This document shows positions 100 through 27,437 of a stretch of DNA of 56,566 nucleotides, piece by piece. The notes under the pieces were generated by a model. It did no database searches. It was not told the origin of the DNA and saw only the letters and a program-made list of their open reading frames with translations. The stretch's first letter is position 1; each line of letters begins with the position of its first letter. Origin of the DNA: a virus; the IMG/VR virus record IMGVR_UViG_3300045988_014023, positions 1 through 56,566 of that record. The stretch is one strand, 5' to 3'. The position numbers were made by a program, and so were the translations under genes.

Positions 100-1296
100 T
101 CATAATGCTTCGATTAAGTCAAGTTCCTGTCTCTTTTCCTCAATTCCGGTACGATCAAAATAATAATGATCTTTTGTGCAACTAATGTCTGTATGCCCCA
201 TAGTATCAAGAATTGTGGACTCTTTCACTTTTCCGTCAAGAAGAATACTTCCGTATGTCTTTCGGATTTTGTGCGGAGATTTCACTTTCATTCGCAATTC
301 ATGTTCGCAGATATACCGCAAACGTTCACGAAAGTTGTAGGATTTCAAACGCTCTCCGTCTCTCTCGAATAGATATTCCCCGAAGGGATTTCTCTTTCGT
401 ACTTCATCAAGAATCCATTTGTACTTATCCGGCAATATGGCAAATCGCAATCCGGCTTCTGATTTCGGAAAATCTTTGACCTCATAGTGAAAGCCATCAT
501 CATCACGGTAACGAGTCTCTGTAGAATTGATAGCAACCGTGTAGTTTTCAACATCTTTCCGCTTTAATGCCGACAATTCCCCGACACGAACTCCTGTCTT
601 AAACATAAATAGCAATCCAAGGTTCACAATATCCAAGTGATTCCTTAAGTACATCTCCATGCGTTCCTTTTCATCCGGCATATATACTTGGTCTTTTGCC
701 TGCCGAACTACGTGCTTAAATGCTTTTGGCGATATATCCATATCTTTCAGCGTGTATGTAATTGAAAACTTAACATACTTCTTCCGCTTGGCATACTTAA
801 AGATTCCATAAATCAGCGTCCGAAAGTTTGAGAATGCCTTGGAAGTCATGTCGAAATCATGAATGCTGTTTCGTATAAACGTTTCAAGGTCGCATTCGTC
901 TACACTTTTGATTTTCTTATCCTTGATGTCGTCAAAGTATCTCTGAAAGTCCATTAAGTATCTGTCATAGGTTGCCCTGCTGATTTCTTCAAGTTCCAGC
1001 TTTTGTGAAATCCAACGGTTGAAGATTTCCTCTATCGTAGGGTCATCCTCTTTCTCTTTCCAATAATCAATGATTTTCTGCTCGACCGCTTCTCTGCGCT
1101 TTGCCTTGATTTTACGTCTGCCTTTTACTTCATCCGGCAGATATGAGTACCAGTTCTCATCCTTTCCTTGATAGATTTTATAAGGGTTTTTGTTGAGTAA
1201 TTTCTCTCTCTTTTGCATAGTGACTTGTTTCTGCACAAGTGCTATGTCGAGAATACCACTATCAACGGCATATTTCAACAGTTCTTTTTCATCCAA
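100..1296 (-). CDS. int: Tyrosine site-specific integrase
   Basis: 398 aa. C-terminal catalytic signature GVRVGELSAL...HKIRKTYGS...GHTDISCTKDHYY (R, H-x-x-R, H, Y). Adjacent to the tRNA-like core. Confidence 0.9.
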   Translation of the reverse strand: MDEKELLKYAVDSGILDIALVQKQVTMQKREKLLNKNPYKIYQGKDENWYSYLPDEVKGRRKIKAKRREAVEQKIIDYWKEKEDDPTIEEIFNRWISQKLELEEISRATYDRYLMDFQRYFDDIKDKKIKSVDECDLETFIRNSIHDFDMTSKAFSNFRTLIYGIFKYAKRKKYVKFSITYTLKDMDISPKAFKHVVRQAKDQVYMPDEKERMEMYLRNHLDIVNLGLLFMFKTGVRVGELSALKRKDVENYTVAINSTETRYRDDDGFHYEVKDFPKSEAGLRFAILPDKYKWILDEVRKRNPFGEYLFERDGERLKSYNFRERLRYICEHELRMKVKSPHKIRKTYGSILLDGKVKESTILDTMGHTDISCTKDHYYFDRTGIEEKRQELDLIEAL

Positions 1297-5046: not shown

Positions 5047-5202
5047 TTATCTCCTTTTTTTCAAATAATCAAAAATCTCATGTCCGATCATTGCTATAAC
5101 TGACAGAACGCAAAAAAGATTGACTCCAAATTTTGTTAGAATATCTAACCTAATGGCTATAAGTATTAGTAGAATGAAATTTATGTACGATTGAAACATC
5201 AT
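5047..5202 (-). CDS. Hypothetical small membrane protein (51 aa)
   Basis: Hand-translated MMFQSYINFILLILIAIRLDILTKFGVNLFCVLSVIAMIGH... Its ATG overlaps the upstream stop (ATGA). Confidence 0.4.
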   Translation of the reverse strand: MMFQSYINFILLILIAIRLDILTKFGVNLFCVLSVIAMIGHEIFDYLKKRR

Positions 5203-5675
5203 TCTTCATCACTCCAATCAAATTCAATTTCTTCTGCACTATCAACGCCTAACTGCTCACACTTCGCTCTGGTAGATGTACCGCCGGAGTGGTTTGTGCC
5301 TAAAAGAAACAGTTCCTGTACAATGCGGAAGTATGATTTTCTAAAACAAAACCTCTCTTCCTTGTCAAGTTCCTCAATCGCATCCTCTCCATGTTGCCAT
5401 CTGTACCACTCTGCAAACTCATTAACCATTTCCTGCATAAGGCTGATACAGCATTCAAGAATGTGTTTTTCATCGTGACTTTCCAATTCCTTGTTGACGT
5501 TCTGTTTCTCCACCGCCGCCCGGCATTCTTCCAACGTGCCGATTGTGCGGTACTGTTGCACCTCTTCCAGTGCCTTAATCAAACATTTCCCCATATCTGA
5601 TTTAGGAAGAATACAAATCATGTCATTATCTCTATTGGCTTTTTTCAGCAATTCGATTGCTTCATTCTCTGTCAT
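5199..5675 (-). CDS. Hypothetical protein
   Basis: Track ORF 5199..5711. Start moved to MTENEAIE (GGAGG RBS), which overlaps the stop of the upstream small ORF. Confidence 0.5.
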   Translation of the reverse strand: MTENEAIELLKKANRDNDMICILPKSDMGKCLIKALEEVQQYRTIGTLEECRAAVEKQNVNKELESHDEKHILECCISLMQEMVNEFAEWYRWQHGEDAIEELDKEERFCFRKSYFRIVQELFLLGTNHSGGTSTRAKCEQLGVDSAEEIEFDWSDEE

Positions 5676-5848
5676 TCCGGCACCTCCGTCAACCCATCCA
5701 AGGCATAGCATCCGGCAAATCCTTCTAATTTAACAACCATCGTTCCACACATGTTGTACGGCTCGCTGACAACCTTAAATACCTTGCCTTTATTCTTCTC
5801 CGATACATAATACTTATCATTCATGGTTACTTTTTTACCTTTAATCAT
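5672..5848 (-). CDS. Hypothetical small protein (58 aa)
   Basis: Hand-translated MIKGKKVTMNDKYYVSEKNKGKVFKVV... ATGA overlap with the yopX-like stop. Confidence 0.4.
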   Translation of the reverse strand: MIKGKKVTMNDKYYVSEKNKGKVFKVVSEPYNMCGTMVVKLEGFAGCYALDGLTEVPE

Positions 5849-6270
5849 TTCTGCACCTCCAACAGTTCCGGATTGTCAAATCTGTTACCATTAACTTCAA
5901 TTGTGCTTCCATAGCATTCTTCAAACTCAGATTTGCGACCGTCTGCATCTTCAACATTCCAACACATATCCTCTTGCTTCCAGATAATCTCGTAAAAAGC
6001 TCTTTCGTCAGAATCCCATACTATATCATGTTCAAACACCAGCTTTTTGTTCTTATCGGGCATTGCGGTGCACTGGCAGACGGTGGCTGGGTCTACCTCG
6101 ACCATGTCCGGGATATCATTGGTCATTCCCCATAGGATATATCTTCTCTCCCAGATACCATATAAATATCCTTGTATCCATTCCCCATTATCAATCCGCT
6201 TTCCACGGGATAAAAATCTATTCTCCATCGCGTTCCACCTTTTTTCCTTTACAAACTCCTCTGTGTTCAT
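5845..6270 (-). CDS. yopX: YopX-family protein
   Basis: 141 aa. RGKRIDNGEWIQGYL and the C-terminal EVNGNRFDNPELLE match the YopX signature (...IGNIxxNPELL). Confidence 0.7.
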   Translation of the reverse strand: MNTEEFVKEKRWNAMENRFLSRGKRIDNGEWIQGYLYGIWERRYILWGMTNDIPDMVEVDPATVCQCTAMPDKNKKLVFEHDIVWDSDERAFYEIIWKQEDMCWNVEDADGRKSEFEECYGSTIEVNGNRFDNPELLEVQK

Positions 6271-6371
6271 GCACGGAGAAAGAAATACTTCCGGTCTGCT
6301 TCATGTAAGTCAATTTTTCTCCGGTCAGCTCACATTTGTGTTTACGTTCGTTTAAATACTGACATCTTCCA

Positions 6372-18222: not shown

Positions 18223-18981
18223 TCATGCTCCTTTCAGAAACTTGTTTACAAAGTAAACCTGTCCTTTTCCGGTAACTTTCGTTGTCTTTGTAATTCTTAC
18301 GGAACCGTCCGGATTCTGAATGTTGCTTTCCTTAACCTCGAACAGTCCCTGTTCCACATATCTCTGTTTTGGCATGTTCCTAGAAGTACCGCTTTTAATA
18401 AGGAAGTTATTCTCTCTCAACCACTCAAATAACCGCTTCTGTCCTATCTGCACACCGTTCTGACAAATCAGCTTTGCTAAATCTCCAATGAGGATTGATG
18501 TATGGCTTGCTGATACTGCATCAGCGAAAATCTCTTTAGGTATCATTCCTTGGATTCGTGAGTCCTGCATAGCAATGATATTGTTCTTTTCGTCAATCTT
18601 TCGTTGTGCCACCATAAGTGCCTTGGAAAGCAACTCTTCATCAGATAAGGTTTCCTGTCCTGCTATGTAACCGCCATTCTTACGGATTGACGGAAGGACT
18701 TCATGCGTAATCCATCTTTTAAAATCTTTGGCTTCTCTTTTTCTGCTTGCAAGTACCAATGAGTAAAGACCGTATTCGTTTACACAGTTTGTCTCTCCAC
18801 CAGATAACCCTAAATTAAATTTAGCCTTTTCATCATCGTCAATTCTTTGCATAGCCATTGTTGGGTTTGACAAATCTAACGACCTGCATATGTCACTTGC
18901 GACAAACCAAGGCTCATTATCTTTAGTAATTGTCCGAATCTCTCCAAACTCTTCCGAATTAAAAATCTGTAATTCGTTCAT
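18223..18981 (-). CDS. ant: Bro-N / KilAC-type antirepressor
   Basis: 252 aa. IFNSEEFGEIRTITKDNEPWFVASDICRSLDL...FKRWITHEVLPSIRKNGGY is a Bro-N domain. The C-terminal half is antirepressor-like. Confidence 0.85.
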   Translation of the reverse strand: MNELQIFNSEEFGEIRTITKDNEPWFVASDICRSLDLSNPTMAMQRIDDDEKAKFNLGLSGGETNCVNEYGLYSLVLASRKREAKDFKRWITHEVLPSIRKNGGYIAGQETLSDEELLSKALMVAQRKIDEKNNIIAMQDSRIQGMIPKEIFADAVSASHTSILIGDLAKLICQNGVQIGQKRLFEWLRENNFLIKSGTSRNMPKQRYVEQGLFEVKESNIQNPDGSVRITKTTKVTGKGQVYFVNKFLKGA

Positions 18982-18995
18982 AGTTCTCCTTTCTG

Positions 18996-19004
18996 TGGTA
19001 TAAT
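18996..19004 (+). promoter_or_regulatory. Extended -10 promoter element (TGgTATAAT) for 19039..19248
   Basis: TGGTATAAT read at 18996-19004, followed by RBS AAGGGAGG and a TTG start at 19039. Confidence 0.4.
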
Positions 19005-19038
19005 CCCCTTATCATCAAATAAGGGAGGTGAAAATCTT

Positions 19039-19248
19039 TTGAAACAAAGAATCATAAATGGTTATTGTGAGCAACAGCGTTCTGATTATCAAGTTAAGGT
19101 CAATGTTATTGAAAGCAAAACTACTGAATCGTCAGAAGAATACTGTGGTACTTACGATTGCAAATATAAGCGTGACGGCAATATTTGCAGTCAATCAAGT
19201 TGCTCTGTCCTTTCATCAAACAATATTTTTGTTGGCGAAAAGATGTAA
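19039..19248 (+). CDS. Cys-rich small protein, cassette 1 (paralog of 20586..20774)
   Basis: 69 aa with a TTG start and strong RBS. The GYCE...V.V.VI...YCGTYDC...C...C pattern is shared with the 62-aa ORF. Confidence 0.55.
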   Translation: MKQRIINGYCEQQRSDYQVKVNVIESKTTESSEEYCGTYDCKYKRDGNICSQSSCSVLSSNNIFVGEKM

Positions 19249-19272
19249 CCATTATTCCCCGGACTTAAAATC

Positions 19273-19533
19273 TCACGTTCGGGGAATTTCTTCGTCTGCA
19301 ATCTGTAGATTAATTGCCCCGATTTTTTCCTGATATATCAAGCAAACGGCATCAACAGTCAAATTAAATGCCTGTAAATCAAGCACCAAATGCGGAAGAC
19401 CGTTTGGTTCTACAGAAAAATCAAGTTTTCTAATTCCTTTGATTTCATGTCCATCTACAAAAAGATGAATGCTTGACGGTGGTTCTCCCTCTCTTCTCGG
19501 CTTGATTTCAATTTTTTGTGGTTTGTGTTCCAT
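19273..19533 (-). CDS. Hypothetical protein, cassette 1 (paralog of 20749..21003)
   Basis: 86 aa. VDGHEIKGIRKLDF...LVLDLQAFNLTVD aligns with IDGHVIHGVRSVRF...VHLDFNCINMSID. Confidence 0.55.
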   Translation of the reverse strand: MEHKPQKIEIKPRREGEPPSSIHLFVDGHEIKGIRKLDFSVEPNGLPHLVLDLQAFNLTVDAVCLIYQEKIGAINLQIADEEIPRT

Positions 19534-19792
19534 ATTCTAACCCCCTTTCGTCACTCTCTTCTTGTGGTAAAAGCAAATGAATATTTTCCAAACGGAGATT
19601 AGGATATAATCTCTTTGTTTCTTCATATACGGTTTTGGTTTTCAGCCATTTCCGCATATGGAGAACCTGTTCCATGACATCCATATCGTGAATATCCACT
19701 TTGTTTAAAATCTTCTGCAATTCCTTTTCCATTCCATTGAAATAGGAAACCGGAACAACAACCAAATCATTCACGGATTTAATTTCTTTCAT
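19508..19792 (-). CDS. Hypothetical protein
   Basis: Track ORF 19508..19837. The likely start is MKEIKSVN (AGGAGAGGA RBS). Confidence 0.5.
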   Translation of the reverse strand: MKEIKSVNDLVVVPVSYFNGMEKELQKILNKVDIHDMDVMEQVLHMRKWLKTKTVYEETKRLYPNLRLENIHLLLPQEESDERGLEYGTQTTKN

Positions 19793-19820
19793 TTCTTCCT
19801 CTCCTTTCTGCTCAAAATCT

Positions 19821-20009
19821 TTATTCTTTGCGATCAATTAACTCGGCTACATCAATTCCTAGTATTTCGGAAACCCTTACAACTTTGTCAAACGAAGGGC
19901 TAATCTCTCCCCATTTGCAAATACTGCCCTGCGAAATATTAGCCATCATTTCTAGTTTTCTGATTGGAATTCCCTTTTCCTTACTGAACCGTTTGATTTT
20001 TTCGTACAA
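19821..20009 (-). CDS. Cro-like XRE-family HTH regulator
   Basis: TTG start 7 nt after GGGAGG. LYEKIKRFSKEKGIPIRKLEMMANISQGSICKWG is an HTH_3 pattern. First gene of the leftward early operon. Confidence 0.7.
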   Translation of the reverse strand: MYEKIKRFSKEKGIPIRKLEMMANISQGSICKWGEISPSFDKVVRVSEILGIDVAELIDRKE

Positions 20010-20037
20010 GTTAAAACCTCCCTTCCTTTTCTTTAAG

Positions 20038-20053
20038 TTCTGAAAAAATCGCA
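20038..20053 (-). promoter_or_regulatory. Operator copy a (TGCGATTTTTTCAGAA, inverted)
   Basis: Exact 16-mer, reverse-complement orientation, 9 bp upstream of the -35 of the rightward promoter. Confidence 0.6.
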
Positions 20054-20061
20054 CATATATG

Positions 20062-20090
20062 TTGACTATTCTCTGAAGATATTCTATAAT
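20062..20090 (+). promoter_or_regulatory. Rightward sigma-70-type promoter (TTGACT-17-TATAAT)
   Basis: -35 at 20062-20067 and -10 at 20085-20090, with the spacer counted as 17 nt. Points toward the repressor-like gene at 20254. Confidence 0.6.
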
Positions 20091-20149
20091 TTGAGTTGCG
20101 AGCAAAAATCATAGAAATTAATTACGGCATGCGAATGTCGCTATTTTGT

Positions 20150-20165
20150 TGCGATTTTTTCAGAA
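20150..20165 (+). promoter_or_regulatory. Operator copy b (TGCGATTTTTTCAGAA)
   Basis: Exact 16-mer, about +5 to +20 of the leftward promoter. Confidence 0.6.
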
Positions 20166-20176
20166 CCTTTAAGTAC

Positions 20177-20204
20177 ATTATACGCGATATATTCAGAATG
20201 TCAA
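20177..20204 (-). promoter_or_regulatory. Leftward sigma-70-type promoter (TTGACA-16-TATAAT)
   Basis: On the minus strand, -35 = rc of 20199-20204 and -10 = rc of 20177-20182. Points toward the Cro-like gene and faces the rightward promoter. Confidence 0.6.
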
Positions 20205-20214
20205 TAATTATTTT

Positions 20215-20230
20215 TGCGATTTTTTCAGAA
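20215..20230 (+). promoter_or_regulatory. Operator copy c (TGCGATTTTTTCAGAA)
   Basis: Exact 16-mer, 11 bp upstream of the -35 of the leftward promoter. Same relative geometry as copy a has to the rightward promoter. Confidence 0.6.
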
Positions 20231-20253
20231 TTTTATTTTGTGGAGAAAATCAA

Positions 20254-20583
20254 ATGACATTAAAAGAAAGAGTTAAAGAATTGTGCGATGAAAACGGTGT
20301 AAAAAGCTACCAATTAGAGGAGTATTGCGGATTTGCAAAGGGATATTTGAGCAAGCTGGATCATCCAAATGTGGACAAAGTAAATGCAATAGCTGAATAT
20401 TTTGGTGTTTCTCTTGACTATCTCGTAAATGGTAAAGAAGACAGATTGGAAAAATATGCAAATATGTCAGCAAAATTAATGAAGGACGAAGAATTGACCT
20501 GCTCATTAAAGAAATATTTCAACTTATCAGACGCTAAAAAGAAACACGTTATTGAATTAATAAACCTATTAAGTGAGGAATAA
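20254..20583 (+). CDS. CI-like XRE-family repressor (no peptidase domain)
   Basis: 109 aa. LKERVKELCDENGVKSYQLEEYCGFAKGYLSKL...IAEYFGVSLDYLVNG is an HTH_3 pattern. One of very few plus-strand genes, divergent from the early operon. Confidence 0.7.
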   Translation: MTLKERVKELCDENGVKSYQLEEYCGFAKGYLSKLDHPNVDKVNAIAEYFGVSLDYLVNGKEDRLEKYANMSAKLMKDEELTCSLKKYFNLSDAKKKHVIELINLLSEE

Positions 20584-20585
20584 TT

Positions 20586-20774
20586 ATGTTTATAAAAGAA
20601 TATGGATTTTGTGAATTGGTAAATAAAAATGTAACAATAGAAATTGACCAAGTTCCGTACAAGAACAATGAAGGAATTGTATACGCAAAAGGCAAGATAC
20701 GTTGCGGTTATAGCGACACAACGTATCATTGCGAAAGAAACGATTGCCCTATATGGCGTGGTCTTGATTCTTAA
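20586..20774 (+). CDS. Cys-rich small protein, cassette 2
   Basis: 62 aa. Starts 2 nt after the repressor stop, so it is probably co-transcribed. Paralog of 19039..19248. Confidence 0.55.
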   Translation: MFIKEYGFCELVNKNVTIEIDQVPYKNNEGIVYAKGKIRCGYSDTTYHCERNDCPIWRGLDS

Positions 20775-21003
20775 ATTTAATCTCAATCTCGCTCTCTCCG
20801 TCATTTCCTTCTAATCTTGTAACAAACGGAGAGTCTATTGACATATTGATGCAATTAAAATCAAGGTGAACAACCGGCATTTCCATAGCCTTCTTTTCAA
20901 ATCGAACGCTACGAACACCATGAATCACATGACCGTCAATAAGAACTTCGCAAAAAATACTGTCTTCATTAATGGATCTGATTTCAAGTTTTGAATTTTT
21001 CAT
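20749..21003 (-). CDS. Hypothetical protein, cassette 2
   Basis: 84 aa. Its 3' end overlaps the convergent 62-aa gene by 26 bp. Paralog of 19273..19533. Confidence 0.55.
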   Translation of the reverse strand: MKNSKLEIRSINEDSIFCEVLIDGHVIHGVRSVRFEKKAMEMPVVHLDFNCINMSIDSPFVTRLEGNDGESEIEIKFKNQDHAI

Positions 21004-21110
21004 TTACAGAACTCCTTTACGATATTTGATACAATAATATAAATACAACGTAAGACCTTCCGGTCTTCAATCTTATCAATCAATTCTATTATCTTCTTTT
21101 TGTAATCCAT
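21000..21110 (-). CDS. Hypothetical small protein (36 aa)
   Basis: Hand-translated MDYKKKIIELIDKIEDRKVLRCIYIIVSNIVKEFCK. Strong AGGAGGGG RBS and ATGA overlap with the next gene. Confidence 0.4.
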   Translation of the reverse strand: MDYKKKIIELIDKIEDRKVLRCIYIIVSNIVKEFCK

Positions 21111-21300
21111 TTGCAACCCCTCCTATCGATATACCCCATTATAGAACGTGTGTTCGGCATAGTCAATCCCCAATTATGGGCGGAGCCATGCCAAACCCCA
21201 CCCATGCCAGAACTTGAAGTGTCCTTTCGGACAAGTCCATAGTATCACTGTAATATGCATGATTTCAACATTTTTCGGTCGCAAGTTTCGACAAGAAATG

Positions 21301-21426
21301 TCATTGCAGAGAAGCGGAAAGCTGTTTCTCAATCTCTTCTTGCACTTTTGCGCGCCAACGCATCGGCACTTCATCAATCGTCATTTTCTTATCTACCAAG
21401 ATTCTGCGCACATAAAACTTAACCAT
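21301..21426 (-). CDS. XkdX-like small protein (41 aa)
   Basis: Hand-translated MVKFYVRRILVDKKMTIDEVPMRWRAKVQEEIEKQL... Resembles the XkdX-type mini-proteins found after tail fibre genes. Confidence 0.45.
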   Translation of the reverse strand: MVKFYVRRILVDKKMTIDEVPMRWRAKVQEEIEKQLSASLQ

Positions 21427-21429
21427 ATC

Positions 21430-21810
21430 CTACACCTCACTTTCTGCTGCAATGCTTGCCAGTTCTTCGATTGCTTCTGCGTTTGCTTCGTGCCCTGCTT
21501 TAAGTTCATCGATTGCTTTTTCCATTTCCGTCTTTGTTCTAAGTCTTACCGTTACGGTATATGTACCGTCTTCTGCGCCATCTTCTCCCACGTTCGGATT
21601 GTAAGAAAACCCATCGGATTTCAGATCGGTGTATTCTCCAGACGCTTCCCCGTTGTGGGTGAATGTCACTTTTGCAAGGTTGTCCCCGGAAAACGCTTTC
21701 GTGATGGTCTTGACGGCTTCGAAATTCTCTGCCTTGATCTGGATGTTTCCAAGGCTTGCTCCATCGGCAATTTCAAATTCTGTTTTGTTGGCTAAAATAA
21801 TTTTGTCCAT
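21430..21810 (-). CDS. Hypothetical protein (XkdW position, downstream of the fibre genes)
   Basis: 126-aa ORF. The call is based on position only. Confidence 0.5.
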   Translation of the reverse strand: MDKIILANKTEFEIADGASLGNIQIKAENFEAVKTITKAFSGDNLAKVTFTHNGEASGEYTDLKSDGFSYNPNVGEDGAEDGTYTVTVRLRTKTEMEKAIDELKAGHEANAEAIEELASIAAESEV

Positions 21811-22087: not shown

Positions 22088-23185
22088 TTAACTTACAGTT
22101 ACTGTAAATACAGCGAAATGTCCGGTATATCTTTCCGTTATTCCATTATGGACAAGCAGCAAAATGCTAGGATATTTAAACACCGTAGAAGACCCTGGCA
22201 ATTCGATTTCCGATGCGCTTTCTTGCACTCGGCATTTATTTATTGTTATCGTTTTGTTTCGCAGAGCATCCGATATTGGAGCGGCTACTGACATGCCTCC
22301 AAACCCCATCATAAATGCCCCAGGAATATCATATGTGCCATTTACTCCACGCAAAAAATCATTTAAACTGCCGTTTAAATCACTTAACTGTTTCGCCAGC
22401 GTGCCGTCTATATTCGGGTTAGCCTGCCGCGCGTCCAACGCATATCCGGCAACCGTGGTTGTCTGATTATTCACTACACTTGTTTTCGTGTCCGGTGGTG
22501 TTTGCCATGTGCCATCTTCTCTTAGATATTTACTCGTTCCTGCTGTAGTCGATGGTGCAGGAACAAGACCGGCTTTTGCGCCGGTTCCGGATTTTACAAA
22601 ATTGGAATATGTTGTGTTATTATCAGCATTCCAGTCCATGCACAACCAAAATGTACCATCATAAGTAAATATATGGGTCGCATTATTATAGAAGAAATTT
22701 CCGCTTGCATAAGAAATAGCCGCCTTATTCCCGTTTCGAACATATCCTATAGTTTTCGCCCCGGTGCCATTTACATTAAGTGTAAGGTTCCCGGTTGTTG
22801 GATTTGCTGTGCCCACCGTATCCGTAAATTTAACCGCAATGCTCGTACCGACTTGTAATACAAAGTTTGCCAATGTTGCAACTTTAGCCGCCGTAGCTCG
22901 ACCGGTCGCGCAAGTAGCCAGCGGTTTTTTCAAAACCTCAATTGCTTTTTTGTCGGTTGCGGACATTAGACCGTTAGATGTGGTTGTCGCTGGTGCGCTT
23001 GATCCTGCAGATGGTCCGCTCATCCAATAGTCTTTTGTATCTGCTCCAGGTACTTTCCCTGCCGGAACATTCTTTTTCGCAATGTAAAGCGTGTTGTTAT
23101 GCATTACTGCATCCAACCGTTTGTAAATCAAGGATGCGTCATAGTCATCCTTTGGTACAATTGCCACTCTTCCTGCTATAGCCAT
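22088..23185 (-). CDS. Tail fibre / receptor-binding protein
   Basis: 365 aa, the last large gene of the tail module. T/N/G-rich beta-type sequence. Carries the right inverted repeat in frame (…SDLNGSLND…). Confidence 0.6.
   Translation of the reverse strand: MAIAGRVAIVPKDDYDASLIYKRLDAVMHNNTLYIAKKNVPAGKVPGADTKDYWMSGPSAGSSAPATTTSNGLMSATDKKAIEVLKKPLATCATGRATAAKVATLANFVLQVGTSIAVKFTDTVGTANPTTGNLTLNVNGTGAKTIGYVRNGNKAAISYASGNFFYNNATHIFTYDGTFWLCMDWNADNNTTYSNFVKSGTGAKAGLVPAPSTTAGTSKYLREDGTWQTPPDTKTSVVNNQTTTVAGYALDARQANPNIDGTLAKQLSDLNGSLNDFLRGVNGTYDIPGAFMMGFGGMSVAAPISDALRNKTITINKCRVQESASEIELPGSSTVFKYPSILLLVHNGITERYTGHFAVFTVTVS
22365..22380. repeat. Inverted repeat, right copy (AAACTGCCGTTTAAAT) inside the fibre gene
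   Basis: Perfect 16-bp match to rc(21856-21871). Lies within the dyad ATTTAAA-CTGCCG-TTTAAAT. Confidence 0.75.
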
Positions 23186-26633: not shown

Positions 26634-27437
26634 TTAAGCTACTACTGATTCCCATTCAGATTTCAGCTTTTCTACATCGTTTTCAAAAAGTTTGCAAGCG
26701 ATTTCGTACAACTGCGGAATCATTCCCATTTCCCTGTCAATATAATCCATCTTGTTTCTTACTTTTGGTTTGAGCGCGCACCCTTCCATCCTTGATTTAA
26801 GGTTGCAGTGATATTTCCTTTCAAATTCTCCATAAAGCAACGAATAGCGTTCTTGATACTTTCCATCGGCACCAAAACGGACAATCTGCGTTATCCGCTG
26901 TCTCTTGGTCGCCAAGTCAATATCATCAACAAGTCCGATAATAACATCTTCCTTATGGATGATTTCTTTCTGCTGTCTTTTAATGGTTTCGTTCTGCTCT
27001 CTAACAGTTTTTAATGTCTGTGAAAATATCAGTTTAGTGTTTTCATCTGCATATGGTAGGTAAGTAGAAATAAATAATTCATCATTATTGACATACCCAC
27101 CTGTTTTACGGATTGCAGGTAGAACCTCGGATGTTACCCACTTGCGAAACTTCTTTGCGTTCGGCTTGTCGCTCCGAACGATAACCGCATATAAGCCGCT
27201 CTCTGTAATGAAATTTGATTCTCCTGCACGACCGCCTAGATTTAATCTAGTCAGTTCATCTTCATCAAGCCTTTTTGCTACGTCTGTAGCATTTTTAATT
27301 TCCAATGCCCTGCAAACATCAATAAGGCAAAACATCGGTTCATCATCGACCATGACCATTCTGATCTGTCCGAATATTGGATTCTCAAATACCTCAATGC
27401 CGTTTTGAATCTTAAGCATAAGTTGTGATTTTTTCAT
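26634..27437 (-). CDS. Second Bro-N domain antirepressor-like protein
   Basis: 267 aa. VFENPIFGQIRMVMVDDEPMFCLIDVCRALEI...FRKWVTSEVLPAIRKTGGY. Paralogous to 18223..18981. Confidence 0.8.
   Translation of the reverse strand: MKKSQLMLKIQNGIEVFENPIFGQIRMVMVDDEPMFCLIDVCRALEIKNATDVAKRLDEDELTRLNLGGRAGESNFITESGLYAVIVRSDKPNAKKFRKWVTSEVLPAIRKTGGYVNNDELFISTYLPYADENTKLIFSQTLKTVREQNETIKRQQKEIIHKEDVIIGLVDDIDLATKRQRITQIVRFGADGKYQERYSLLYGEFERKYHCNLKSRMEGCALKPKVRNKMDYIDREMGMIPQLYEIACKLFENDVEKLKSEWESVVA

Follow-up and report, generated by a model that had tools for sequence, protein, structure and literature searches.

A duplicated convergent pair of small-protein genes, a conserved module in the lysis-lysogeny circuitry of a temperate phage

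Small genes placed beside the repressor gene of a temperate phage, or across from it, are known in several arrangements. Type I systems of Bacillus prophages consist of convergent small genes with overlapping 3' ends, and the rexAB genes of phage lambda are co-transcribed with cI. The small antirepressors of the Gifsy prophages are described as being under direct LexA control and as binding uncleaved repressors (PMC3121763), and in a further class of modules a transcription factor activates a small open reading frame (ORF) whose product inactivates cI (PMC10432266). Here we describe a related but distinct arrangement in IMG/VR record IMGVR_UViG_3300045988_014023, of which positions 1 to 56,566 were analyzed; this whole 56,566-nucleotide (nt) stretch is called the window below. 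Two convergent two-gene cassettes flank its cI/cro immunity switch (Table 1). Each joins a plus-strand gene for a four-cysteine protein (Cys69 in cassette 1, Cys62 in cassette 2) to a minus-strand gene for an acidic β protein (DGH86 and DGH84, respectively). A single conserved and self-contained module, made up of two small proteins, is present here in two diverged copies within the lysis-lysogeny circuitry. It is probably an additional level of control over whether the phage stays dormant or kills. There is strong evidence that the module is real, functional and widespread; its mechanism is what we infer from gene arrangement and conservation.

The first-pass annotation of this DNA, made from its letters alone, had described two paralogous convergent cassettes bracketing the switch. 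This description is upheld, together with the coordinates of the four ORFs, the 24-nt gap between the genes of cassette 1 and the 26-nt 3' overlap in cassette 2, and hmmsearch finds exactly two DGH and two Cys members in the window. The paralogy of the minus-strand proteins is evident from BLASTP (E=1e-8, 31% identity over 59 aa). The direct match between the plus-strand proteins is weak (E=9e-4, 20% identity), and their relationship is secured by intermediate variants, by a profile of their lineage and by invariant residues. Thus, among 8393 ORFs, a phmmer search with the 69-aa protein matched the 62-aa subtype B at 1e-5, and a hidden Markov model of the window-lineage Cys proteins retrieved distant members at 1e-8 to 1e-12, exactly at the predicted places. 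The Cys proteins are ~62 aa long, and in an alignment of 24 of their sequences, residues G7, C9, G36, C40, C49 and C54 are invariant, and these six persist at ~20-25% identity. The ratio of nonsynonymous to synonymous polymorphism (pN/pS) is below 1 in both families, at 0.07-0.52 for Cys (0.36-0.52 in three subfamilies) and 0.11-0.78 for DGH. Given this paralogy, the pN/pS values and the presence of two members of each family, the similarity is far above chance. Good Shine-Dalgarno sequences precede both types of cassette gene, and with the pN/pS values and the pairing kept in relatives they argue for real ORFs rather than a chance match of low-complexity sequence.

Conservation of the pairing in related phages was the test that the first-pass annotation had set for itself, and the pairing is found in close and distant phages alike. 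Loci were fetched in three ways, via Cys proteins of the window lineage, via DGH and via a distant Cys subfamily; they carry flanks of 4-6 kb, not whole contigs, and total 2.43 Mb. In the first 176 sequences, fetched mostly via DGH, a convergent DGH partner lay within -26 to +42 nt for 130 of 131 Cys genes, and a DGH partner was present for 78 of the 80 Cys genes in loci fetched via Cys. All three unpaired Cys genes are situated at cut locus ends, so that pairing holds for 208 of 208 testable Cys genes. It is kept down to ~25-30% identity to the window proteins, and in locus L090 even a fusion of a helix-turn-helix (HTH) domain with DGH is followed by a convergent Cys gene. In the other direction the bond is looser, since 61 of 191 DGH genes lack a Cys partner. 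The dependency is therefore one-sided: Cys never occurs without DGH, whereas DGH is often solo. Examples of solo genes include an 84-type DGH that faces a different repressor and an 86-type DGH followed by an unrelated convergent pair, alt75 (~75-121 aa) and alt62 (~62 aa). In many relatives, this pair takes the place next to the Ant-type gene, upstream of it and downstream of the solo DGH, and perhaps constitutes an analogous module (L001 2570-2982; L120 5194-5716).

It is improbable that the two genes have no functional coupling, i.e., that two unrelated accessory genes were joined once, have stayed adjacent by descent and were duplicated through a recombination accident. Linkage alone could account for the co-divergence of the partners (r=0.90 over 94 unique pairs), and the region is highly mosaic, with alternative genes occupying the same slots. 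Random break-up, however, predicts solo Cys genes as often as solo DGH genes, against the 0/208 and 61/191 observed. Moreover, adjacency is kept at two genomic positions and down to the low identities given above, with an invariant orientation relative to cI and to the lytic units.

This orientation is a constant feature of the module. Cys genes are always oriented like cI, in the lysogenic direction, and DGH genes are always transcribed in the lytic direction. In the window, DGH86 closes a unit with a predicted control by cI, cro - orf109 - DGH86, and DGH84 is the second of a two-gene operon with orf36, the two genes overlapping by ATGA. Across lineages, at least seven different types of small Cro-type HTH gene are directly followed, and often overlapped, by a DGH gene. 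The DGH domain is also fused to the C-terminal side of Cro/XRE-type HTH domains in P0056, P0099, P0169 and P0057. Such fusions come in several independent architectures, one of them with two HTH domains, and were also noticed at L090 1574-2128 and L256 3001-3543. In the L093 lineage, DGH is the first gene opposite cI, i.e., in the cro position, with no other HTH gene there; the three small ORFs between it and the Bro-N gene have no Pfam match. In L256, DGH faces an ImmA-type (Peptidase_M78) gene and its unannotated neighbor.

The DGH family comprises at least 166 cluster representatives at E <=0.001 in an exhaustive profile search, from which P0117 and P0118, at first taken for multidomain relatives, were rejected as low-complexity false positives. 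Its members are mostly 75-100 aa long, with the consensus KIEIK..TE..IDGHKI.GVRS..L....P.LTLDLNA.D.S.D, and are acidic (isoelectric point <7 in 97% of members, median charge -4.2). The cro position in L093 had raised the idea that DGH is a DNA-binding Cro analogue; this is disfavored by the acidity of the family, which fits a protein binder. The AlphaFold2 (AF2) model, with a mean predicted local distance difference test (pLDDT) score of 82.7, has five β strands and a floppy tail. It had no match in the PDB at E <=0.001 with Foldseek, and in BFVD it matched only uncharacterized phage proteins. As for the Cys family, four of its invariant residues, C9, C40, C49 and C54, are candidate metal ligands; their spacing is C-x30-C-x8-C-x4/5-C, with no CxxC knuckle. 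The Cys62-type protein P0036 was found on 421 contigs.

The first-pass annotation recognized neither family, and library searches lead to the same result: the four cassette proteins and orf36 have no significant match in Pfam, PHROGs of known function, PADLOC or NCBIfam. Sequence profiles of the PDB gave no significant match for DGH and only non-significant ones for Cys (E >=0.14). In PADLOC, among cI, orf36 and the four cassette proteins, cI alone is matched, by a CapH-like HTH model at 2.1e-5. A search of Pfam for ribbon-helix-helix domains found no match for the cassette proteins, whose models contain β strands and no helix. No hydrophobic stretch was seen by eye in the four proteins, nor any membrane segment or enzymatic motif. 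Among GenBank phages, there was no DNA match to the region and no tblastn match to a consensus-like DGH. The host of the phage is apparently a member of the Lachnospiraceae, a weak assignment: of two scans of GTDB genomes, the first was empty and the second gave one Lachnospiraceae metagenome-assembled genome.

The control region of cassette 1 is compact, the start codons of Cys69 and of the Ant-type gene lying 57 nt apart on opposite strands. Here and below, transcription start sites, promoters and terminators are predictions. The cassette-1 plus-strand gene had been credited with an extended -10 promoter of its own, and the promoter scan found this element as TG-n-TATAAT. The strong Shine-Dalgarno sequence AAGGGAGGTG precedes the TTG start of Cys69 and contains the 3' arm of an inverted repeat, the 5' arm of which begins right after the -10 element. 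The resulting leader fold is common to all leader variants compared (30 by one count, 28 by another), with compensatory changes such as CCCT/AGGG versus CACT/AGTG; the repeat may have its effect in the DNA itself or in the early mRNA of the opposite strand. The predicted terminator of Cys69 overlaps the stop and last codons of DGH86. The Cys69 promoter was also considered as a PRE-like promoter reading through cro into cI, which is unlikely given the strong terminator predicted after Cys69.

When 211 Cys copies were classified, 88 had a same-strand ORF just upstream and 123 were stand-alone. The largest groups of upstream ORFs are cI-type repressor genes, and some are antisense ORFs over Ant genes, so that the true number of cI-linked copies is below 88. 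Of the 123 stand-alone copies, about 107 lie no more than 300 nt from a divergent ORF, in most cases a Bro-N/Ant, AntA, Rha or ORF6N gene at 45-108 nt; this arrangement is seen in distant phages as well. 'Ant' is only an annotation for the neighboring gene; a Listeria protein with AntA and KilAC domains was found to inhibit the SOS response (PMC9043618). The control block of stand-alone copies runs from CTCCTTTC, the ribosome-binding site (RBS) of the neighbor, through TGTGGTATAAT and an inverted repeat with the Shine-Dalgarno sequence in its 3' arm to the start codon. Many lineages have kept the CTCCTTTC-TGTGGTATAAT element upstream of their stand-alone Cys genes; cI-linked copies have no promoter of their own. 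The whole block was noticed beside antirepressor-type genes in distant phages (window 18986-19038; L096 5463-5519; also L093, L133, L244 and others).

These features bear on the idea that the role of the cassette is transcriptional only. A strong reverse promoter facing the early or SOS unit would insulate Ant in cassette 1 or cI in cassette 2, and the Cys ORF would be secondary cargo. The conservation of the CTCCTTTC-TGTGGTATAAT block at the antirepressor RBS, even where the cargo is the unrelated alt62, speaks for it, as do the 3' ends, which always overlap or touch, and the use of face-to-face promoters by the switch itself. Yet the six invariant residues and the pN/pS of the Cys family are not what mere cargo would display, cI-linked copies lack the promoter in question, the terminator predicted after Cys69 limits the antisense reach, and the need of Cys for DGH specifically is left unexplained. 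We rate this explanation as low as the absence of coupling.

Cassette 2 is connected differently. Cys62 was said to be co-transcribed with the repressor, and the arrangement bears this out as far as the sequence can tell, since Cys62 begins on the same strand 2 nt past the stop codon of the HTH repressor gene, 20254..20583, just as annotated. This 109-aa repressor has matches to HTH families only, with no S24 peptidase domain in Pfam. The switch contains three direct copies of the operator-like sequence TGCGATTTTTTCAGAA, 32-33 nt apart, and one inverted copy, and its predicted promoters are face-to-face (plus 20062..20090, minus 20204..20177), with a predicted transcript overlap of ~70 nt; coliphage 186 likewise has face-to-face promoters with overlapping transcripts. 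Close copies of TGCGATTTTTTCAGAA (no mismatch, plus one with three mismatches at 20183) are confined to the cro-cI intergenic region, and the only other matches, with three mismatches each, are at 22920 and 41791, a long way from either cassette promoter. Neither cassette promoter therefore looks cI-controlled, and direct control of these promoters by cI was set aside.

The promoter predicted ahead of orf36 instead carries CGAACACACGTTCT, by its sequence a Gram-positive LexA box, with the core GAACGTGTGTTC at 21144-21155 and a predicted span of 21143-21157. Sites of the form GAAC-N4-GTTC number 189 in the fetched loci, of which 155 lie upstream of orf36-like genes (a set also called orf38-like), and ~158 of the 189 are directly followed by TATAAT. 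The orf36-like genes of these loci number 224. In the fetched loci, no LexA box was found at other DGH genes; it accompanies orf36-like genes and not DGH. In other lineages, an orf36-like gene converges directly on cI. Because the repressor is HTH-only and not cleavable, induction by an SOS-controlled small protein, as in the Gifsy phages, would be the natural reading by analogy. On this sequence evidence, orf36 is the candidate for the primary trigger and DGH84 an apparent add-on in the window lineage. The orf36-like genes may form a family of SOS-induced antirepressors of very small size that act on HTH-only repressors. The first-pass annotation was thus right on the pairing itself. It missed the place of the minus-strand genes in lytic and SOS units, the LexA box at orf36-DGH84, the linkage and fusion to HTH genes, and the one-sided dependency.

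The reading that we favor, tentatively and at somewhat less than an even chance, is that DGH is a pro-lytic anti-immunity factor and Cys its lysogeny-made zinc-protein antagonist, with convergent transcription reinforcing the antagonism. DGH would work with Cro-type regulators, or as an extension of them, as a protein-binding antagonist of the lysogenic state rather than a DNA binder. Cys, made in the lysogen and binding zinc, would bind and neutralize its cognate DGH, and its titration would set a threshold such that leaky activity of PR or of the SOS promoter does not flip the switch. Convergent overlapping transcription might add mutual antisense effects and damping by collision. Upon DNA damage, release of LexA would fire orf36-DGH84 against the non-cleavable cI, and DGH would outrun Cys. 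Each of the two paralogous pairs would work without cross-talk to the other, one as the guard of the SOS trigger, the other as that of the early operon. A more far-reaching version is possible but more doubtful. It holds that cognate-specific DGH-Cys antagonist pairs form an unrecognized second bistable layer, in which a zinc protein titrates a Cro-associated or SOS-induced anti-immunity protein, the duplicates are orthogonal, and cross-talk and competition among co-resident or superinfecting phages are governed as well, with solo DGH as a 'master key'. This layer would be widespread in gut Firmicutes phages.

Several observations weigh against the antagonist reading. Linkage by itself would already make the partners co-diverge. 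The place upstream of Ant can be taken by unrelated reverse-strand genes, alt62 and alt85, behind the same promoter; in such loci, selection might act on the reverse promoter instead of on the Cys protein. The fold of DGH has no characterized structural relative, and the AF2 model of Cys, in which β strands and no helix are predicted, is unusable (pLDDT 60.5, with the cysteine-rich tail <50). HTH-DGH fusions are few, four among the 166 representatives. Finally, DGH84 is optional in the SOS operon, where elsewhere orf36-like genes occur alone or DGH84 occurs without Cys, implying that DGH is not the primary SOS trigger.

A serious rival, although we consider it rather unlikely, is prophage defense with a self-antidote, in which Cys would be an exclusion factor expressed in lysogeny that stops some step of lytic phage growth, DGH the cognate early or SOS-expressed antidote through which the resident phage escapes this block when induced, and solo DGH a counter-defense. 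It explains the asymmetry, with Cys never found without DGH and DGH solo in several lineages, as well as the antagonist reading does, and the same is true of the fast evolution of Cys in three subfamilies and of the presence of two diverged pairs per genome. The co-transcription of Cys62 with cI, as in lambda rexAB, and the behavior of the cassette as a mobile unit at different junctions also suit it. The HTH fusions and the antirepressor neighborhood are less well explained: a simple antidote would not be expected to be fused, or translationally coupled, to Cro-type HTH proteins as repeatedly as DGH is, and the back-to-back arrangement of stand-alone Cys genes with antirepressor-type genes points to regulation. 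In addition, there is no defense match in PADLOC, Pfam or NCBIfam, and membrane segments and enzymatic motifs are absent from both Cys and DGH.

A classical toxin-antitoxin or abortive-infection pair, of type II or of a type I-like form with a 3' overlap, appears the least probable of the alternatives. Convergent, 3'-overlapping small prophage genes do recall the Bacillus type I systems, and the dependence of Cys on DGH mimics that of a toxin on its antitoxin. The expression logic is nevertheless wrong, since the gene that is never solo would be expressed with cI, while its would-be antidote stands behind a promoter predicted to be cI-repressed or to carry a LexA box; a lysogen would therefore hold the toxin without the antitoxin. 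Furthermore, both genes encode conserved proteins, neither being a plain antisense RNA. None of these proteins is a hydrophobic peptide of the toxin kind, has a fold known from toxins or antitoxins, or is matched in PADLOC. Of the functions first proposed for the cassettes (toxin/antidote, exclusion or abortive infection), the toxin is thus disfavored by its expression logic and by the lack of a hydrophobic segment and of PADLOC, Pfam or NCBIfam matches, and exclusion with a self-antidote has the higher probability.

Table 1. Genes and predicted control elements of the immunity region, in window coordinates.
Feature	Position	Strand	Details
Ant-type gene (Bro-N + KilAC)	18223..18981	-	Pfam Bro-N 1.5e-25, ANT 1.6e-32; PHROG 130 at 2.4e-89
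Cys69 promoter, extended -10 TGgTATAAT at 18996-19004	18977..19004	+	Promoter scan; -35 region overlaps Ant RBS and start codon (other strand)
Cys69 leader, inverted repeat CCCTTAT (19006-19012) / ATAAGGG (19019-19025)	19005..19038	+	3' arm within Shine-Dalgarno AAGGGAGGTG
Cys69, cassette-1 four-cysteine protein, lysogenic orientation	19039..19248	+	69 aa, TTG start; hmmsearch E=3e-23
Hairpin followed by UUUCUUCGU, likely Cys69 terminator	19254..19287	+	Fold -17.8 kcal/mol, z=-4.0, 0/200 shuffles as stable
DGH86, cassette-1 acidic β protein	19273..19533	-	86 aa; BLASTP match to DGH84; hmmsearch E=8.7e-25
orf109, early gene between cro and DGH86	19508..19837	-	Probably 94 aa, from MKEIK...
Cro-like HTH gene	19821..20006	-	HTH_3, HTH_26; 60-aa form with TTG start at 20006, the form called in relatives
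Immunity switch	20037..20231	.	Four operator-like TGCGATTTTTTCAGAA copies; face-to-face promoters
cI-like repressor	20254..20583	+	109 aa; Pfam HTH_19, HTH_3, Phage_CI_repr; PHROG 8 and 4; RstR-like
Cys62, cassette-2 four-cysteine protein	20586..20774	+	62 aa; hmmsearch E=1.6e-25
Hairpin and U-tract inside Cys62 coding region, possible SOS-operon terminator	20692..20732	-	z=-2.6, 3/200 shuffles as stable
DGH84, cassette-2 acidic β protein	20749..21003	-	84 aa; hmmsearch E=1.3e-27
orf36 (MDYKKKIIELIDKIEDRKVLRCIYIIVSNIVKEFCK), first gene of LexA-box operon	21000..21110	-	36 aa; stop overlaps DGH84 start (ATGA)
SOS-type promoter TTGACT-17-TATAAT (11 of 12)	21138..21166	-	LexA (Cheo) box CGAACACACGTTCT in spacer, abutting -10

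The surroundings of the module are as follows. The window is a complete genome of a temperate tailed phage, with an integrase (100..1296), a DnaB-type helicase, a large terminase and a portal, and nearly all of its genes are on the minus strand. Tail-fiber genes lie beyond orf36 in the orientation of the window. A 41-aa ORF at 21301-21426 (-) (MVKFYVRRILVDKKMTIDEVPMRWRAKVQEEIEKQ...) and the 126-aa ORF that precedes it, 21430-21810 (-), presumably correspond to the XkdX/XkdW-type genes that follow tail fibers in Firmicutes phages; no holin or lysin comes after these two ORFs. A second Bro-N antirepressor-like gene (26634-27437, minus strand; PHROG 130, 1.8e-48) is found inside the tail-gene block, far from the immunity region. 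The sole PADLOC match of orf109 is a weak one to a 'control protein'. In relatives, orf109 is overlapped in antisense over 89 nt by alt85, an 85-aa plus-strand ORF that may be spurious. Some close relatives, L001 and L002, carry a 409-aa reverse transcriptase (RVT_1; 5129-6358, minus strand) between the immunity region and a DUF6273 tail-fiber-like gene, which suggests a diversity-generating retroelement; the window has no RVT_1 there. The early regions of distant relatives repeatedly carry small cysteine-containing genes in the lysogenic orientation, and a reverse-strand zinc-ribbon-like protein of ~60-70 aa (CxC...CPxCG) occurs in their early operons (L093 6116-6523, L151 5588-5803, both minus strand).

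Temperate phages of gut Clostridia are abundant, yet their lysis-lysogeny control has hardly been studied. Hundreds of metagenomic phage genomes have the two-gene unit described here in their immunity region, connected with a cI-type repressor on one side and with units of the Cro or LexA-box type on the other. Should the two proteins be antagonists that set a threshold, a layer of protein titration would be added to the schemes of repressor, Cro and antirepressor, with a handle on differences in inducibility among gut prophages. If they are a defense and its antidote, they would represent a compact exclusion system of a new type, which includes its own escape gene. Either reading predicts cognate binding, and orthogonality between the two paralogous pairs.

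Among described systems, type II toxin-antitoxin pairs are co-directional bicistronic operons with recognizable domains. In contrast, the genes here are convergent and in separate units, under predicted control of cI/PRM or their own promoter on one side and of PR or a LexA-box promoter on the other, and their products have no Pfam, NCBIfam, PADLOC, PDB or Foldseek match. Convergent transcripts that overlap at their 3' ends are shared with type I systems, the coding overlap in cassette 2 amounting to 26 nt. The Bacillus units txpA/RatA and bsrG/SR4 are convergent prophage genes with overlapping 3' ends in the same manner, but they combine a hydrophobic peptide with a non-coding RNA, whereas both partners here are conserved, soluble-looking proteins. 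As in lambda rexAB and sie-type loci, Cys62 is immediately downstream of the repressor gene in the same unit; unlike them, Cys lacks a membrane segment, always comes with its convergent partner, and occurs in stand-alone copies inside the early operon. Cys resembles small zinc-ribbon and treble-clef proteins in its four conserved cysteines, at a spacing that has no CxxC knuckle.

The immI region of P22 (mnt / arc-ant, with the sar antisense RNA) is likewise a second layer of immunity outside cI/cro in which antisense transcription is involved. Its geometry, a small gene divergent from an antirepressor gene across a compact control region, is that of cassette 1 and of most stand-alone Cys genes, for which expression in the lysogen is inferred. 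However, Mnt and Arc are ribbon-helix-helix DNA binders, whereas Cys is a four-cysteine protein with predicted β strands and DGH is all-β and acidic; there is no sequence relation, and the invariant partner of Cys is DGH, not Ant. Gifsy GfoA/GfhA and Tum of coliphage 186 have in common with the window an HTH-only repressor and an adjacent small-protein operon with a LexA-box promoter. They have no opposing partner on the lysogeny side, unlike Cys here, and no sequence similarity, and in the window it is orf36 that is the primary candidate, DGH84 being optional.

The modules that combine a transcription factor with a small ORF, including the Qtip type (PMC10432266), follow a similar logic with diverse sequences, a small protein beside an HTH regulator acting on the lysis-lysogeny decision. 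The present module, with its proposed action on this decision, differs in that DGH follows a Cro-like HTH protein or is fused to it and is opposed by the convergent Cys. In SinI/SinR, too, one domain is found both fused to an HTH domain and on its own, as is DGH; these proteins use helical hooks, whereas DGH is a β domain, and cI and cro of the window themselves have no DGH domain. Control and antagonism by small proteins at phage immunity regions are known, and would here be built from two undescribed families.

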